64,000 nucleotides of DNA from positions 2,054,283 to 2,118,282 of the forward strand of contig OZ252220.1 in assembly GCA_965249135.1 (NCBI GenBank), given 5' to 3'. Numbering within the stretch: position 1 is the stretch's first letter; each line of letters opens with the position of its first letter. Origin of the DNA: Alphaproteobacteria bacterium. Its GTDB lineage: Bacteria > Pseudomonadota > Alphaproteobacteria > GCA-2746255. Below, piece by piece: positions 31,601-37,600 of the stretch. Made by a program: the position numbers.

Positions 31601-34600
31601 TCTGGAAAAGTTCAAATCAATACTTCCGAGGACATAGCTCCCTGTTAAGCCCGTTCTGAAACCTTGAGCATAATTATTAGCACCAAAGTCGGCGATTTCA
31701 TTAGTGACCTCTTCTTGGTCCATGTTGCTCACGAGCACGGGCTCGCCCGCCTGCGCCGGCGCCGCGAAGCCGAGCAGCAGCGCGGCGGCGGTGAGGAATG
31801 CGCCGATGATTGCCGGCCCTGGGAAAGGTCTCACAGAAACCGTCCTCCTGCACGCGCCTGCTCGACACAACGCCGGGCTACTGGCGCTTTCGGCGTCGAT
31901 AATGTCGCTATTCACGCTCGTCTCCTTGCGGTCAAGCTGTCCTCTTCGCCGGCCGGCTGCGGGCCTCGCCAGCGGCCTCCGGCTCGCCAGCGGCCTCCGG
32001 CTCGTAATCGTACCAAAGGGAGCATTCTCTGGACAGTTCCTAGTCGAACGCGACCCCCTCGTCGAGTCCGCCGGGTCCGGCGATGGGGAGGAATTCGCCG
32101 GCGAGCGACGCGTTCGGCGATGCGCCGCCGGAAATACTCGGCCTCGCGTCTTCGCGGGAAGTGAAGCGCACTGGGCCCAGGTTCGGTGAGCTTGAGGCGG
32201 GCGCGGAGCACACCCTTGGCCGCATAAACGCCGATGACGAACCTGCAGGATCTTGCCTTCGTGGGTGCGGCTCGGCGGTCGGCGGAGGCCAGACGGTTAC
32301 TTCAGAACGGTATCCGTCCCCGCGGCATGACGCCGTGGTTCATGGCCGCGGCGTTGGCTGGCGCGCGGCGCTCGCCTTCAAGGCTAAGCTGGAGCGCCGC
32401 CTCGATCTCGAAGCGGCCGGCGAATGACGCGATACCGACGCTCAGACGCCGGGATTCAGTGTTCGTGGTCGGACTTCACTAGCCGCCCGCCGGCGGCGAA
32501 GACGATCACGTCGTCGACGCGCGCCGGCCCCTGTCACGAGCGCACGCCCTCAAACACCGCCGCGCAGGGCCGCAGCCGGCTGGTCGAACGGAGACACTCT
32601 CCCTGCTCCGCGAGGATGCGACGAATGCCGGGCAGTCCGGCCCGCGGCCCGTAGGTCCGAACCAAGCTCTCGATCCGATAGCGGCCACGACGGCCGCATG
32701 GCTCGCAGACCACGGCGAGCGTTCCGCCGGGATCAAGATCGCATAACCGCACCGCCCCGCAGCCGGCCACGAGCTGTCTCAGCGGCCACGCGACGTCGGA
32801 TTCAGTTAATTTTATCCTTCCGATGTTCTTGTATTGTTCTCATTCTCCATTCACTCTATAGTGCCTCGCTTCGATCGTCGACTCGGGGCCTGGCGGCACG
32901 CCTGAGACCACCGTGCGGCGCTCGCGGCCAGGGAGGACGGCACAATGCCGAACACGGCAATCAATACACGCGGCAATCAATACAATAGAAATGCCCGAGG
33001 GCACGAAGACCGCCGCGAGGGCGCATCACAAGATCCGCTCGATGGCGGTCTCGGGCGGCTTTCTCGACGGCGCCCAACTCGACTTCGCGGACGGGCTGAA
33101 CTGCATCATCGGCGGCCGCGGCACCGGCAAGACGGCGGTGCTGGAGTTCATCCGCTACCTTCTGGGTCCGATGCCGGACACTCCCGAGGGCAAGACCCGC
33201 GGCAGAGCAATCGAGGGGCTGATCCGGGGCAATCTCGGCAGCGGCACCATCGGCCTCGACGTCGAGACCAAGCACGGCACGCGCTATCGCGCCGAGCGGC
33301 CGTGGGACGATACGAGCCAGGTGCTGGACGCAGACGGCGCGCCGGTCGCGGTGTCGCTCGATCGCGACCTGGTGTTCAAGGCCGACATCTACAGCCAGAA
33401 CGAGATCGAGGAGATCGCCACTACGCCAAGATTCCAGCTGTCGCTGATCGACAAGTTCGAGGAAGAAGCGATCCGCGAGACCGGCGCGGAGATCGCCAAG
33501 CTGACCCGGGCCATCGAGCAAAGCGCACACGATCTGCGAGCCCTCGACCGCAACATCGGAGAGATCGAGGACGTGGTGCCGGAGATCGACATCGTCGCCA
33601 AGCGGCTGCAGGAGATGCAGGCTGTCGATGGCCCCGAGGCCGAGCTGATCAATACCGCGCACGAGCACAAGGCGCTGCGGGCGCGGGAAGCGGAGGCGCT
33701 CGCCGACCTTCGGCAAGTGGTCGACCGCTTCGCGGACGAGTTCGAGCGGCTTGCCGGCGCCGTGGCCGAGGACTGCGCCACCGCGCTCGGCGACGGGTTC
33801 GAGAACGGCCCCAACGGCGCGGTCTTCGCCCAGGCTGCCGATGTGGTTGCGGAGTATACGAGCGCGATCCGCGAGACCGTGCCGGCGATCGGGAGACAGC
33901 GCGCCGCCGCGGCCGCGGCCCTTGACACCCTGGCCGTGGGGCTTGCCGGCGGACACGCGCGCCAGGAGCAGCACTATCGCGAGCTGGTCGCACGCTCGGC
34001 CGAGGAGCAGGCACAGGCGGCCGAGCGGGCGAGGCTGCAGCAGCGGCATCTGGAGTTGTCCAAGACGCAAGGCCAACTCGACGGCTTGAAGCGCAGGCGC
34101 CAGAAGTGCGAGGCCGAGCACCGCAAGATGACGGCACGGCTGTCGGAACTGCGCGACCGGCGTTTCGGGTTGCGCAAGGAGATCGCCGAGCGGCTGAGCG
34201 CGGCGCTGGCCCCCACCATCCGGGTCTCGATCGCCCAGGCCGGTGATCGTTCGGCTTACGAGCAGTATTTGCGGGAAGCGCTCAAGGGCTCGGGCACCAG
34301 GTACGGCCAGATCGTGGCGCAGATCGTCGCCAACCTGGCGCCGGAGGAATTGCCGCCGATCGTCCGCCGGGGCGACACGGAGCGCCTGGCGGAGCACGCC
34401 GGCATCGGCGAGGACCAGGGCGAGCGCATCATCGATCATCTCCGGGACGGCGACCACGCCTTCAGGCTCGAGACCGTGGAGCTCGCCGACGAGCTGCTGA
34501 TCGAGCTCAAGGACGGCGAGGCCTACAAGAACGCGGCCGATCTCTCGACCGGCCAGCGCTGCACGGTGATCCTGCCGATCCTGCTGTTGGAGAGCGAGCG

Positions 34601-37600
34601 CCCGCTGCTGATCGATCAGCCCGAGGACAATCTCGACAACGCCTTCGTCTACGACACCATCGTCAAAAGCCTGCGCGAGGCCAAGGGCGGGAGGCAGCTG
34701 ATCTTCGTCACCCACAACCCCAACATCCCGGTGCTCGGCGAGGCCGAGCGGGTGTTCGTGTTTGCTTCGGACGGAAGGCGCGGCAGCGTGACCCGCGTGG
34801 GCCCGGTAGACGAGGTCAAGGGCGAGATCGAGCATCTGCTGGAAGGCGGCGCCGAGGCCTTCAAGCTGAGAATGCGCAAGTACGGCCATTGAGGGAAGCA
34901 TGATGGCGGACGCGGCACGGACGCTGCTCGATGATCTCGAATCCGACGACTGGAGCACGGTGCGCGACGCGGTCGAGACCGCAGGCGACCGGCTGCGCCG
35001 AAGGCGCCTCGACGCCGAGCTGGCCGAGGCCATCGGCGTGCGGCTCTACGGCCTTGCGTCCCACCCCAAGTGGCAGGTCCGCAAGGCGGTTGCCCACGCA
35101 CTCCTCTATCTGCGCCACGAGCGCTTTCATGCCGCCATCGCCCGCATCATCGACGACGACAATGTGTGGGTACGCGACGCCGCGCGGCGGACTTTCCAGC
35201 GGCGCACCGAGGTCACCCGGGCGGATATCCACAGCGATGATCACGGCGACCGGACGCTCGCGCTTCTGAACGGGCTTGAGGCGCGGTACGGGCCGCGGGC
35301 GCGCAGGGCGGCGCACAGGCTCGCCGATCAAATGGACGAGACCTTCGTGCGCATGGCCTATCACGAGATGATCCGGATCATTTCCCCGCTCGATGCCGAG
35401 TTGATCAATCTGGAGCGCGAGCTCGCCGACACACCGGGGGCGGGCTCCGAGAGCCGGGGCAGGGTCGTGCGCGCCCAGCGGCGCGTGCGCCTGATGACGG
35501 AGTTCCTCGACAATCTGCGCGCGTTCACAACCGAAGTGCGGGGCCCCTTTACGAGCGAGGTGCTGCTGCCGCTGGCGCGCGAGGCCGAGGAGCTGGCGCT
35601 AGACGACCTCGAGCCGTCGATCGCGGCGCCGGCGATTCATGTGGCCGTCGATCCCGCGATCCGCGTCGAGGCCAACCGCTCCCGGCTCCTGCAAGCACTC
35701 ATCAATCTTCTGGTGAACGCGGTCGAGGCCTTCCGCGACGGCGGCCGGCCGGGGCGCATCGAGGTGACCGCCGAGCAGCTCGCGGGCGGCCATGTCGCGC
35801 TTAGCGTCGCCGACAACGGCCGCGGGATGGATGAAGACGCGGTCGAGGAATGCACCCAGCTCTATAGCACGGGCAGACGCGACGGCATGGGCTTCGGTCT
35901 GCCGCTCGCCAAGAAGATCGTCGAACTCGACCATCACGGCACCCTCACCATCGAGAGCGCCGAGGGAGAGGGAACCACCGTGACCATGGTGCTTCCGGTC
36001 GAGCAGTTGGGAGCGGAGGCCTAAACCGATGGCGTGCGACCACGCAGCTCTGATCGTCGAGGACGAGCCGGAGATGGCCGCCGCGCTGTGCGATCTGGTG
36101 GATTCCCTCGGTCACGATCCTCGCCACGCGACGACCAGGGCCGATGCGATCGAGATCCTGAACGAAGGCGGCCTCTGCTATGTGCTGCTGGACCTGCAGA
36201 TTCCGGCGCACGAGAAGTCGCTTCAGCCGCGCGTGGAGGTCGGCAAGTCGTTGTTGCTGGATATCCGCCGGCGCTATCCGGGCCGTGTCGCGGGCGCCGC
36301 GCACGACATCCATCTCCTGCCGGTGCTGGTGGTGAGCGGCCAGGCCAAGGATCACGACGATGTGGTGCAGGCCCTGCAGGAGGGCGGGGACGACTTCGTG
36401 CGTAAACCGCTGAGCCTCGATGACCGGGGCCCCGGTGCCAAGATCGGGCAATGCCTGAACCGCAGCGGGCGGTCCGATCATGGGGCCTGCTATGGGGCAA
36501 CGGTCGTGGCCACCGGCGCTGCGGACCGCGGCGGAGCCAAGCCGCCGTTCACGCACACGGCCGATTACTCGGAAGTGACCTTGAACGGCGAGACGTATCT
36601 CTTCACCGGCTTCGTTCAGCGTGAAGTCATCCGCCTCCTTCACGAGGCCGTCAATAACGATCGGCCCTGGCAGCCCGGTAAAGGGGTCCTGTACGAGGCG
36701 GGTTCGACCAACGCGAAGATGATCAACCTGTTCAGGGATCATCCTTGCTGGGGCACTCTGATCGAGTCCAACAGGCGCGGGCCCTACCGTCTAAAAACCG
36801 AGTAGGACTGCGTAATCTCACCCGTCAGTGACCCGTCGCTGACCCGTCACAGAGCCCTTACCCACCCGTCGATGAGCCTGCCGACAGGCCGCTGATCAAC
36901 GGTCATCCTTTCCGCAGCTTGAACGAGAGCAGCGGAGAAGCGGATGGCCACACAACATCTGAACCAGACCCAGCTGGCGGCGCGCTGGAACATCTCGCCG
37001 CGCACGCTCGAGCGCTGGCGCTGGATCGGCGACGGCCCTCGCTACCTCAAGATCGGCGGCCGCGTCGTCTACCGGCTCGAGGACATCGAGGCCTACGAGG
37101 CCGGGCAGCTGCGCCTCGCCGAGCCCGAGACGGCTCGGCCCGTCGCCGGCCGGGGACGCGGCGCATGAATCTGATGGCTTGCAGCGCCACCCCGGAAGCG
37201 CCCGTGCCCGCCCCGGCGACGATGGCTCTCATCATCGACGTGGCCGGTTTCGAGGGATGGTTGAGGGCCGCCCATCCGGGGAGCCGGATCACCTATCACC
37301 GCGGCCTTCTCTGCGTCGACCGGCAGCAACGGCCCCACGCACCGCACGACCCGGCGCGCGACGAGCTCAACCGTCTCGCGGACCGCGCCATGCGCGCCTC
37401 CGCCGACGGTCTCGTCCACCTCTTCCAGAAGCGTCATGGCGACGCCGATTACAGCTACCTCGCGATCCGCACCCGCACTCCCGCGAAGCGCCGCGGGGAG
37501 GCCTTCTCCCATTCGGCCCGACGGAGAACAACCTGATGTCGAACCGTATTCAGCTCGAGGACATCCGCGCCATGCCGGTCGGCGAGATCGCCGCCCTGCC

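Follow-up and report, generated by a model that had tools for sequence, protein, structure and literature searches.

Two-component systems of the OmpR/PhoB family, among them PhoR-PhoB and EnvZ-OmpR, combine a HisKA-type H-box kinase carrying a CA domain with a receiver that holds the D-D-S-K set of residues and ends in a winged helix. Their regulators bind tandem direct repeats about one helical turn apart, and tandem sites abutting the -35 element are the layout of OmpR/PhoB-type activation. A trio of genes in a prophage-like island, lying in a 64-kb window (the whole stretch of DNA analysed), resembles this family in its kinase, its receiver and the layout of its repeats, with a tail predicted to have the same winged-helix fold. 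It departs from the family, however, in that its kinase is soluble and carries a HEAT-like input domain modelled as docking on an ABC/SMC-type ATPase, its regulator tail gave no match in sequence searches of Pfam (including Trans_reg_C) and the PDB, and the system is phage-borne, with a phage early operon as its proposed target.

Prophage induction can be gated by LexA without CI cleavage, as in coliphage 186 (Tum antirepressor), GIL01 (gp7-LexA) and CTX phage, where a phage promoter carries a host LexA box and induction thereby answers to the SOS response. A box of this kind is also predicted at the trio. While 186 and GIL01 use an antirepressor or a LexA co-repressor, the LexA-controlled genes here would encode a three-protein phosphorelay ending in a proposed DNA-binding activator.

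Defence systems supply the remaining relatives. The ATPase is homologous to the ABC ATPase body of TrlF, Spaf_1101 and Ppl (NF045780, NF045781 and NF042955; PADLOC Ppl). A literature search for TrlF as a gene name found none. The NCBIfam TrlF family matches it at 303 bits, below the cut-off of 350, and only over model positions 278-944; the ATPase therefore lacks the N-terminal PHP part (the first 277 positions), which we take to be the nuclease of these defence relatives, and it has a kinase as partner in place of a nuclease of its own. Detocs likewise places a soluble kinase and a receiver protein on mobile DNA, but with an enzymatic effector that has no conserved counterpart in the trio. 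Ambrosia also has this pairing, and the accessible part of its preprint (bioRxiv 10.1101/2025.09.30.679545) proposes that the winged helix of its receiver turns on neighbouring genes; the trio differs in having no conserved restriction-modification genes of the kind given there. In contrast to both systems, as far as the accessible descriptions extend, the trio includes an ATPase partner, has no significant PADLOC match and has the alpA early promoter as its proposed target.

The three genes are as follows.
32991-34892, + strand: ATPase gene, ABC/SMC-type with a coiled-coil insert and a possible helix-hairpin-helix, TrlF/Ppl-like without the N-terminal PHP part
34900-36024, + strand: soluble histidine kinase gene, HEAT-like solenoid (about residues 1-135), DHp domain with H155, CA domain
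36029-36805, + strand: regulator gene, receiver (D55) followed by a divergent OmpR/PhoB-type winged-helix tail (residues 172-258)

The three open reading frames lie where the preliminary description had placed them, 7 nt (ATPase/kinase) and 4 nt (kinase/regulator) apart, except that the most likely start of the ATPase is ATG 32991 and not GTG 32913, because its homologues align from residue 26-39 onward. The catalytic residues reported earlier are invariant in our alignments as well: Walker A, signature LSTGQ, Walker B and H-loop of the ATPase (26 sequences), H155/E156 and the N and G boxes of the kinase (18 sequences), and E11, D12, D55, S103 and K126 of the regulator (30 sequences). In domain searches the kinase matched HATPase_c (82.7 bits) with HEAT_2 below threshold, the regulator matched Response_reg over residues 8-131, and HHH_5 in the ATPase was a weak match (E 0.0015 only). 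The PADLOC matches of the ATPase to Ppl, LmuB and AriA are indeed partial; the kinase and regulator, for which zero hits had been claimed, do have marginal ones (E 0.0019 and 7e-4), neither of them significant.

Gene order is conserved. Of 58 loci offering 2.1 kb or more of room, 57 have the ATPase immediately 5' of the kinase, and tblastn places the regulator immediately 3' of the kinase in 57 of 64 loci. In the seven misses an ORF of 282-421 aa occupies the same place, and both of the two checked are receivers. Structure modelling supports a physical link between the first two proteins: the HEAT domain of the kinase is predicted to dock on the ATPase with an ipSAE of 0.70, against 0.00 for the best of three controls. 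Of solved complexes, 116 of 157 came up to the mark, as did 2 of 215 mismatched pairs; these counts hold only roughly because our own alignments were used. The runs share at least 68% of contacts, with a partner pLDDT of at least 61, and the modelled interface comprises HEAT residues 19, 57-59, 62, 66, 87-94 and 97 of the kinase, among them the invariant W58, K62 and N88, and includes D389 of the ATPase. We propose the ATPase, a DNA-repair-like protein, as a candidate sensor.

At the other end of the relay, the predicted output is DNA binding. The tail modelled alone (pLDDT 94.3) best matches the VicR DNA-binding domain (Z 7.6, rmsd 2.8 A, 83 residues), and all 50 of the matches listed are OmpR/PhoB/ToxR-type winged helices covering residues 1-87, with middling Z values of 6-7.6; a model of the whole regulator has full-length OmpR/PhoB regulators as its matches. 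The trio is upheld as a conserved, co-diverging unit on prophage-like elements, and of the earlier reading as a mobile sensor-regulator, possibly a defence module, the first half is supported and the second is not.

Relatives carry record titles from Alphaproteobacteria, Magnetococcales, Deltaproteobacteria/Myxococcaceae, Planctomycetota, Verrucomicrobia and Gemmatimonadota. Their distribution is as patchy as described before, the kinase being present in one of five other species of the genus (56% identity) and in none of 25 other genomes of the class, nor was it found in any cultured phage of the phage collection. The flanks, previously called unrelated, are shared in the alphaproteobacterial group, with common prophage early genes 3' and mostly a large serine recombinase 5'. 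Downstream of the trio in Alphaproteobacteria and Magnetococcales lie AlpA, g279, AAA_24, g233, a helicase, DUF6511 and g219. Upstream, a large serine recombinase on the opposite strand is found in nine loci (L007, L009, L013, L015, L016, L019, L023, L064 and L067), a WYL regulator stands between the trio and the serine recombinase in L031 and L038, and L017 has a tyrosine integrase. In loci of Chthoniobacter and Verrucomicrobia a replication module lies divergent from the trio, and defence-type neighbours (TIR, Abi_C, HsdM, NERD-kinase and DUF4007) occur 3' of the trio. In prophages the trio lies with the recombinase on one side and the early/replication genes on the other, which is the junction where temperate phages keep their switch.

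Two putative control elements precede the ATPase gene.
32825-32839, no strand assigned: predicted SOS (LexA) box of alphaproteobacterial type, GTTC-N7-GTTC, GTTCTTGTATTGTTC
32834-32862, + strand: putative trio promoter, -35 TTGTTC (32834-32839), 17-nt spacer, -10 TATAGT (32857-32862)

The box follows the alphaproteobacterial LexA consensus given in the accessible parts of PMC9578287 (Table 1) and PMC12700426. It is the sole GTTC-N7-GTTC or GAAC-N7-GAAC match in the window, and the trio promoter -35 overlaps it; the host lexA promoter has the same TTGAC...GAAC-N7-GAAC layout. Of 56 loci with room, 25 (24 of 28 alpha-type loci, and L053) have a perfect box between -330 and +60 relative to the ATPase start, against a background of 25 matches in 905,294 nt (0.011 per 390 nt). 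The boxes have 11 different spacers between conserved half-sites, and TATAGT of the promoter is kept in L002, L004 and L005. Genome-wide, GAAC-N7-GAAC is not enriched (66 observed, 54 expected), so the argument for LexA is one of position and conservation, on which we infer that LexA binds at 32825-32839.

A second set of elements lies downstream of the regulator gene.
36820-36874, + strand: putative operator of five 11-bp units, proposed site of the regulator tail
36881-36909, + strand: inferred alpA promoter, -35-like CCGACA (36881-36886), 17-nt spacer, -10-like CATCCT (36904-36909)
36944-37168, + strand: AlpA-like HTH_17 gene, heading the prophage early operon

ACCCGTC recurs at 36820, 36831, 36842 and 36864 (spacing 11, 11 and 22), with a degenerate unit at 36853, and the array ends 6 nt before the -35-like CCGACA. 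The array had been called unique, which holds within the window, where 16 other ACCCGTC matches are scattered, but not beyond it, since related loci carry arrays in the same phase and position. From these 11-bp-phased arrays to the alpA ATG downstream the distance is about 70-125 nt, and it is kept despite 300-500 nt inserted after the regulator gene (L013, L029 and L067) and also where the trio is divergent from alpA (L026, L039 and L040). The -10-like CATCCT falls inside a conserved block, CATCCTYTCCGCAGG, in an alignment of 17 loci. Both promoters are our own reading, as a sigma-70 scan with stricter criteria gave no site at either place. Downstream of alpA here are AAA_24, helicase, DUF6511, methylase and AAA_25 genes. 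In non-alpha loci neither four other LexA consensus forms nor phased arrays after the regulator gene were found when sought, and the full model is therefore documented only for the alpha/AlpA group.

The array motif appears to change with the regulator tail and not with AlpA. Its core is CCGTC, CCGCC, CCCCC or CCATC depending on lineage, while all these lineages keep the AlpA helix ISPRTLERWRW unchanged. Loci L009 and L066 have different operators although AlpA residues 1-55 are 100% identical, the receivers being 88% and the tails 65% identical; L007 and L011 give 96% for the same AlpA residues, 95% for the receiver and 65% for the tail. By eye, the recognition helix starts with R in all CCATC-type loci and with K in the others, a reading for which L011 and L066 were reassigned by eye. 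Over 378 locus pairs, tail identity predicted operator class, in crude classes, no better than receiver identity did (AUC 0.776 against 0.829), and the tail-operator link thus rests on a few recombinant lineages and on proviruses devoid of the trio. In 80 IMG/VR loci whose AlpA belongs to the same subfamily, searches found no ATPase and no kinase; these trio-less proviruses encode a different protein with a homologous tail. Of 71 such loci with at least 450 nt upstream, 58 have tail and array, nine neither, three the tail only and one, with merely 983 nt of room, the array only (Fisher p 2.8e-8, overstated because the loci are related to one another). Array calls in control windows were 0 of 743. 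Since many related proviruses reuse tail, array and alpA promoter with other N-terminal input domains, the trio appears to be one of the exchangeable input modules that serve a general phage regulator.

We consider it probable, though by no means assured, that the trio is an SOS-gated, phage-encoded phosphorelay activating the alpA-led early operon, that is, the signal input of a temperate-phage induction switch. In the lysogen, host LexA on the box overlapping the trio promoter would keep the trio low, and DNA damage, by removing LexA, would allow the ATPase, kinase and regulator to be made. The ATPase, bound by the kinase HEAT domain as the model suggests, may then gate autophosphorylation at H155 upon a DNA-related cue, and the kinase, to judge from the intact catalytic residues, would phosphorylate D55 of the regulator. 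Comparative evidence points to head-to-tail binding of the regulator tail on the five repeats ending just upstream of the alpA -35. AlpA and the downstream replication genes would most likely be activated, a sign suggested by geometry, and the prophage thereby committed to excision and replication.

Other readings account for part of these observations. The repeats could be sites of an AlpA/excisionase-type protein, serving autoregulation or recombination directionality, with the trio as unrelated adjoining cargo; HTH_17/excisionase-type proteins do bind phased direct repeats, and the array always travels with alpA and not with the regulator gene. We regard this as very improbable, since the repeat motif varies among lineages whose AlpA recognition region stays the same (as in L009 and L066) and the trio-less array tracks the upstream tail protein. 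A prophage-borne defence or superinfection sensor, in which the ATPase detects an invading phage and kinase and regulator relay the signal to switch on a protective response, or, in a hybrid version, the prophage senses a competitor and induces itself, is an unlikely alternative, for all that the nearest named ATPase relatives are defence proteins, the partial LmuB and AriA matches point the same way, the trio is patchy and mobile, defence-type genes lie 3' of it in L045, L051, L052 and L053, and Ambrosia, in the accessible part of its description, offers a two-component precedent with a winged-helix regulator. No effector is conserved with the trio, for which reason the defence reading proposed earlier is not supported, and the sole conserved target is the alpA-led early operon, whose putative operator is common to proviruses with neither ATPase nor kinase. 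The position at the recombinase/early-gene junction, a LexA box predicting low expression without DNA damage (a poor fit to surveillance), the missing PHP part and the PADLOC results for kinase and regulator argue in the same direction.

We hold equally small the chance that the regulator is a lysogeny-maintenance (immunity) repressor. In its phosphorylated form it would cover the repeats and shut off the alpA promoter or transcription running on from the trio, and the phage would be induced once kinase activity was lost. Lineage-specific operator/tail pairs do resemble immunity specificities, no CI-like repressor was seen near the switch, and the two copies present in a single metagenome-assembled genome (L001 and L002) share their operator; a roadblock would also be useful, given that no terminator separates the regulator gene from alpA. 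The commonest tail-bearing regulators of trio-less loci, of about 310-330 aa and without a LexA box, may act as repressors, and in that case the activator reading would lose force. Under a LexA-repressed promoter, however, the repressor would be scarce in the lysogen and more abundant after damage, the opposite of what this reading needs, and the array lies upstream of the -10-like element, not over it, next to a poor -35. Moreover, the regulator gene points the same way as its target, and in trio-less loci a terminator-like hairpin stands between the two, an arrangement more usual for activators.

The island itself is smaller than the approximately 56 kb first estimated: the last 45 bp of tRNA-Met recur as a direct repeat, and the two copies bound an island of 49,135 bp.
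28594-28670, + strand: tRNA-Met, last 45 nt (28626-28670) repeated at contig positions 13761-13805

Homology to two congeners ends at the tRNA-Met 3' end, and the empty site claimed in G005 was confirmed only as far as this end point. The prophage is degraded, with terminase and tape measure kept and adhesin genes in the late region, and this copy of the trio may therefore be non-functional as a switch. One further gene adjoins the trio.
32534-32815, - strand: small Cys-rich ORF, divergent from the ATPase gene

This ORF, which has no Pfam match, is conserved at 64-87% identity in L001-L005.

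The ATPase, kinase and regulator genes form, as their arrangement in relatives shows, a single unit with a recurrent position. A search with the kinase profile recovered 59 loci in species genomes, one of which (L058) is a spurious partial match, and 17 in IMG/VR. A kinase match of 250 aa or more was present in 71 loci, of which 58 had at least 2.1 kb upstream and 64 at least 0.9 kb downstream. The ATPase adjoins the kinase upstream in 57 of the 58 loci with room, the exception (L042) having an integrase there, and tblastn found the regulator downstream in 57/64. The seven loci missed by tblastn have an ORF of 282-421 aa at the regulator position, and the two of these checked with Pfam are receivers. 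The conserved three-gene order claimed in the preliminary description is borne out by these counts, as is the correlated divergence of the three proteins, whose identities to the window copies correlate at r 0.94-0.96, as expected of any co-inherited unit. In the window, gaps of only 7 and 4 nt separate the genes. Spread within the genus is patchy, as had been reported, with the kinase in one of five other species (56% identity); it is absent from all 25 other genomes compared from the class. A single metagenome-assembled genome has two trio copies, on contigs L001 and L002, both with the ACCCGTC operator and each with a kinase 98% identical to the window copy.

Within the alphaproteobacterial group, the flanks, formerly called unrelated, turned out to be shared, with the same early genes downstream and mostly a serine recombinase upstream. 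In alphaproteobacterial loci, and in those of Magnetococcales, the trio is followed by the phage early genes that also follow it in the window. A large serine recombinase lies upstream on the other strand in L007, L009, L013, L015, L016, L019, L023, L064 and L067, a WYL-WCX regulator stands between trio and recombinase in L031 and L038, and L017 has a tyrosine integrase upstream. The trio locus L016, from Aquamicrobium aerolatum DSM 21857, is interrupted by an IS and by the end of its contig. The trio is inverted, and hence divergent from alpA and the early genes, in L026, L039 and L040. It is at the recombinase/early-gene junction that temperate phages keep their switch. In the Chthoniobacter/Verrucomicrobia loci, the trio is divergent from a replication module (AAA_24, PD-(D/E)XK, PIF1, PrimPol-PolA) and defence-type genes lie 3' of it. 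Three of these verrucomicrobial loci (L051-L053) show repeated CCCATATGGG palindromes between trio and replication genes and, in the same divergent control region, a long inverted repeat around GGTGTCATG; their regulators have 334-347 aa, with the receiver as the only domain detected by Pfam. A small gene accompanies the trio in the window:

Window 32534-32815, - strand: small Cys-rich ORF, divergent from the ATPase; 64-87% identity in L001-L005

This ORF has no Pfam match. In other alphaproteobacterial loci, a different conserved ORF of 71 aa accompanies the serine recombinase.

The promoter region of the trio carries a conserved candidate box of the alphaproteobacterial LexA regulon. In the window, GTTCTTGTATTGTTC at 32825-32839, upstream of the ATPase, is the sole match to GTTC-N7-GTTC or GAAC-N7-GAAC in 64 kb; GTTC-N7-GTTC is given as the Caulobacter SOS-box consensus in Table 1 of PMC9578287 and in PMC12700426. 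Between -330 and +60 of the ATPase start, a perfect box is present in 25 of the 56 loci with room, that is, in 24/28 alpha-type loci and in L053, where it is probably due to chance; the background elsewhere in the loci is 25 matches per 905,294 nt. Its spacers come in 11 variants and its half-sites are constant. A TTGACT hexamer precedes the box in most loci, where the box also overlaps the -10 zone; loci of the window's group have the box inverted, overlapping a -35-like TTGTTC that stands 17 nt before TATAGT. The host lexA gene shows the same box layout. Because the motif is not enriched genome-wide (66 matches versus 54 expected), the argument for LexA is carried by position and conservation. 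Other LexA-box forms (CCT-N10-AGG, GAAC-N4-GTTC, TGTTC-N4-GAACA and CTGT-N8-ACAG) are absent upstream of the non-alpha trios, except for CCT-N10-AGG in three of seven Magnetococcales loci, at varying positions, the background being 0.073 per 390 nt. Three Magnetococcales loci (L031, L037 and L038) have a divergent HTH-WYL-WCX gene upstream of the ATPase and, between the two, a duplicated inverted-repeat element, with a pair of TGTCTATCATCTGGTGAGACA copies about 120 nt apart, which are probably the operators of that regulator. Besides the canonical lexA at 519893, a second, short LexA_DNA_bind gene, in a 132-aa open frame, is present elsewhere in the genome (G000 contig 1043434-1043619, - strand).

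The repeat array lies before alpA, whose product scores 36.5 bits against HTH_17 (cut-off 27). ACCCGTC occurs at 36820, 36831, 36842 and 36864; the unit at 36853 is degenerate. Related loci share the order stop codon, TGCGYAAA, about five 11-bp units, CCGACAG, 17-18 variable nt, CATCCTCTCCGCAGG, Shine-Dalgarno sequence and alpA ATG. An exact 6-mer detector flags arrays in 21 of 28 AlpA-linked trio loci, and inspection of the remaining seven by eye revealed either a pair of exact copies together with degenerate ones or an array that is displaced. Spacing is constant relative to alpA and not to the regulator gene: the array remains by alpA despite insertions of 300-500 nt in L013, L029 and L067, and in the inverted loci it lies upstream of alpA as CTCCTTCCTTT units. 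The uniqueness earlier ascribed to the array holds within the window, where the 16 further ACCCGTC matches are scattered, but not beyond it, since the same architecture recurs in related loci. Array detection gave no call after the regulator gene in the Magnetococcales, Myxococcota and Planctomycetota/Verrucomicrobia loci, the viral contig L074 (TGTCCC four times) being the exception, and array plus LexA box are together documented for the alphaproteobacterial/AlpA group only. A sigma-70 scan of 32400-37300 returned 0 sites.

Both AlpA and the regulator's C-terminal tail (residues 172-258) come into question as the protein that binds the array. The repeat core varies by lineage (CCGTC, CCGCC, CCCCC or CCATC), and the AlpA helix ISPRTLERWRW is unchanged across lineages whose cores differ. 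Loci L009 and L066 have different repeats, identical AlpA residues 1-55, receivers of 88% and tails of 65% identity, and for L007 and L011 the respective identities are 96%, 95% and 65%. At the start of the putative recognition helix, as read by eye and with L011 and L066 reassigned by eye, the CCATC loci all have R and the other loci K. In 378 pairs, the AUC of identity against operator class is 0.776 for the tail and 0.829 for the receiver, which is not discriminating, so that the tail-operator argument from lineages rests on few of them.

Proviruses without the trio offer a stronger test of the array-tail link than these recombinant lineages and serve as a natural control. The same AlpA subfamily is encoded in at least 570 IMG/VR stretches; the 80 fetched (L084-L163) contain neither ATPase nor kinase, and most keep a phased array 5' of alpA. 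Upstream on the same strand, these also encode a protein that ends in a homologue of the regulator tail, either of about 229-271 aa and 45-49% identical or of about 310-330 aa and 30-38% identical. Two examples lie directly 5' of array and alpA:

L088, 5911-6840: trio-less tail protein
L117, 6119-6808: trio-less tail protein

The short tail regulator of L117 has a LexA-type box at its start, and the common regulators of 310-330 aa have none. Upstream room of 450 nt or more is available in 71 trio-less loci: tail and array are both present in 58 and both absent in nine, three have the tail only and one the array only (983 nt of room), and arrays were called in 0/743 control windows; the Fisher p of 2.8e-8 for this association overstates the case because the loci are related. 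These co-occurrences point to the tail as the partner of the array. Five trio-less tail regulators gave no Pfam family, N-terminal domains included, and a trio-less tail regulator had no match in a cultured-phage collection. A tail-profile search yielded 3068 representative clusters at E <= 0.001, 482 of them at E <= 1e-10. The best 150 include 112 members of 190 aa or longer; three of these have a receiver and 109 no significant Pfam domain (107 without match, two with one weak sub-threshold match). The trio regulator is therefore the receiver-fused member of a large, undescribed phage regulator family, one that is, judged from sequence, linked to the alpA-type early promoter.

What kind of fold the tail adopts was addressed by modelling. 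None of 21 members has a significant Pfam family in the 87-residue tail, the Trans_reg_C score included, and the sequence has no match in the PDB. Folded alone, the tail reaches pLDDT 94.3, and all 50 structural matches listed are OmpR/PhoB/ToxR-type winged helices (Z 6.2-7.6, covering 74-83 of 87 residues), the best with Z 7.6 and an rmsd of 2.8 A over 83/87 residues; Foldseek E values are weak, at 0.017 or worse. The full-length model matches full-length OmpR/PhoB regulators. The tail is thus predicted to have a winged-helix effector fold, with a four-stranded sheet, three helices and a C-terminal hairpin, and is unlike Trans_reg_C by sequence yet alike by fold. The receiver (Response_reg, 38.3 bits) has the acidic pocket, phospho-Asp, Ser/Thr and Lys expected of an OmpR/PhoB-family member, with E11, D12, D55, S103 and K126 invariant in 30 sequences. 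In the same set C50, R148, H151 and C154 are also invariant, and H5 nearly so; the last three of the four lie in a GRxDHxxC motif in the linker, and these residues may form a metal or redox site joining receiver and linker.

In the kinase, a HEAT-like region at the N-terminus is followed by an H-box (H155) and a CA domain that is complete (HATPase_c, 82.7 bits), a layout that predicts a soluble protein without a membrane segment. The DHp H-box His and the N, G1 and G2 boxes of a two-component histidine kinase are recognizable, as H155-E156...P163, N269/N273, D305-G307-G309 and G329-G331-G333, all invariant in 18 sequences. The preliminary description found no PADLOC model for kinase or regulator, and against PADLOC-DB of 2023 the best matches are indeed short, partial and not significant (TmtA, E 0.0019, and SduA, E 7e-4, respectively). 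In the cultured-phage collection the kinase has CA-domain matches only, over at most 34% of the query; no longer, fused kinases were found at E <= 1e-20, which is weak evidence, and the single ATPase-kinase fusion of the preliminary description was not confirmed by this search.

The ATPase carries the motifs of an ABC/SMC-type ATPase (Walker A G41-K47, signature LSTGQ 518-522, Walker B D542-D546 and H-loop H575), invariant in 26 sequences. Its Pfam matches are AAA_23, AAA_21 and SMC_N, with a weak helix-hairpin-helix match (E 0.0015). Against the NCBIfam TrlF family (NF045780) it scores 303.1 bits, under the curated whole-protein cut-off of 350. Because the TrlF match is confined to model positions 278-944 and the Ppl models reach only its final 120 or so residues, the protein represents the body of TrlF/Ppl proteins minus their N-terminal part, and no PHP Pfam match was found, in agreement with its earlier designation as a PHP-less TrlF/Ppl-like ATPase. 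Membership of TrlF or Ppl itself is ruled out by the sub-cut-off score and the missing N-terminal part. Since homologues align only from residue 26-39 onward, ATG 32991 is the likelier start. A tandem duplication of GGCAATCAATACA (two copies, 32954-32985) lies directly 5' of this codon; the element is single-copy in close relatives (L002).

Modelling of the ATPase in complex with residues 1-250 of the kinase, from our own alignments, supports binding of the HEAT region to the ATPase. The model scores 0.70 versus 0.00 for the best of three controls; the score mark was reached by 116/157 solved complexes and 2/215 mismatched pairs, counts that hold only roughly because our own alignments were used. 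Model runs share at least 68% of contacts, with partner pLDDT of at least 61. Kinase residues around W58, K62 and N88 would meet ATPase segments 382-396, 414-420 and 447-452 (A4 numbering), which are flanked by the coiled coil and the possible helix-hairpin-helix, and several interface residues are invariant.

These elements suggest a circuit in which LexA would repress the trio, the ATPase would gate the kinase upon a DNA cue, phosphotransfer would run from H155 to D55, and the regulator would occupy the array head-to-tail and activate the alpA promoter. An activating role is argued for by the array abutting a poor -35 and by the regulator gene being co-directional with its target, from which a terminator-like hairpin separates it in trio-less loci. 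The converse, a regulator that represses alpA from the same array, seems improbable, as an SOS-induced repressor of a lytic operon would make little sense. Placing the trio among defence modules, as the preliminary description had considered, fares less well than its other proposal of a mobile sensor-regulator: the unit does lie on prophage-like elements, but no effector is conserved with it. Defence systems employing two-component parts do exist, among them Detocs. The Ambrosia report presents another such system, with an XRE regulator, an N6 methylase and an HNH endonuclease beside kinase and receiver (bioRxiv 10.1101/2025.09.30.679545); no such set was seen adjoining the trio in the window. 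The literature, incompletely covered, gave no description of an ATPase-kinase-regulator module, and the earlier statement to that effect stands.

Under the activator reading, the trio would act like an OmpR/PhoB-type system put under LexA control, gated in a manner analogous to the LexA-gated phage circuits of 186 Tum, GIL01 and CTX. The prophage switches known to us use CI-type repressors, antirepressors, LexA itself, or small-peptide or quorum signals; a phage phosphorelay with a DNA-repair-like ABC ATPase as its sensor would be a new host-exit decision route. The ATPases of related defence proteins are otherwise fused to a nuclease, and we know of no earlier case of such an ATPase feeding a histidine kinase. 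As the input of a prophage switch, the trio would have a new architecture, and it reveals a new modular regulator family, in which one winged-helix tail goes with several input domains and with lineage-specific phased operators before one conserved promoter. We tentatively entertain, at somewhat less than even chances, the joint reading that an SMC/ABC-type ATPase is the two-component input of an AND-gate induction circuit and that the tail family is a specificity system. A DNA-sensing ATPase would dock the soluble HEAT kinase, adding a second-signal check to the SOS gate, and tails with interchangeable input domains would co-evolve with 11-bp-phased operators; tail/operator pairs would then make up a specificity system, for immunity or induction, of a new kind. 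The family could also supply ready-made orthogonal regulator/operator pairs and an entry point to prophage regulation in Alphaproteobacteria, of which, to our knowledge, little is known. For defence mining, the case would caution that a defence-like ATPase beside defence genes on a mobile element can serve the element's own regulation.

All the evidence given here is computational; the copy in the window sits in a decayed prophage, and the hosts are mostly uncultured. The window is the final 64 kb of a single 2,118,282-bp contig, and the island, earlier put at about 56 kb, is 49,135 bp long, bounded by a repeat of the tRNA-Met 3' end:

Window 23540-28553: rRNA operon, with tRNA-Met next
Window 28594-28670: tRNA-Met, after the rRNA operon
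Window 28626-28670 and contig 13761-13805 (L060): exact 45-bp direct repeat (tRNA-Met 3' end), island borders
Window 28856-31915, - strand: 1019-aa cadherin-like protein
Window 49214-50311: Fic-domain protein with C-terminal HTH, inside the island
Window 53875-54609: NYN-domain protein, inside the island
Window 59964-62621, - strand: autotransporter
Window 62896 to contig 7223, - strand: 2775-aa Fn3-repeat protein, crossing the contig ends
Contig 11560-12139 (L060): YafQ/RelB toxin-antitoxin pair, inside the island
Contig 14435-15541, - strand: serine recombinase, 368 aa, directly beyond the right-hand repeat

GC is about 56% before and 65-70% after tRNA-Met (genome mean 60%), and homology to two congeners ends at the tRNA-Met 3' end. 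The right flank (contig 15600-19600) has no match in the compared genomes G005 or G001, so that the empty site earlier described for G005 was not confirmed. A circular replicon is argued for by the Fn3-repeat protein, which spans the contig junction. The 368-aa serine recombinase is the only recombinase found and lies outside the island, within which no tyrosine integrase was seen. The trio is followed by AlpA, AAA_24, helicase, DUF6511, methylases, AAA_25, Fic, NYN and a gpA-type terminase, and then by the autotransporter, the Fn3 protein, a tape-measure protein and YafQ/RelB. Overall, the island represents a degraded prophage, which retains terminase and tape measure but looks decayed and carries adhesin-like cargo. 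The autotransporter, Fn3-repeat and cadherin-like proteins stand where head and tail genes would be expected.
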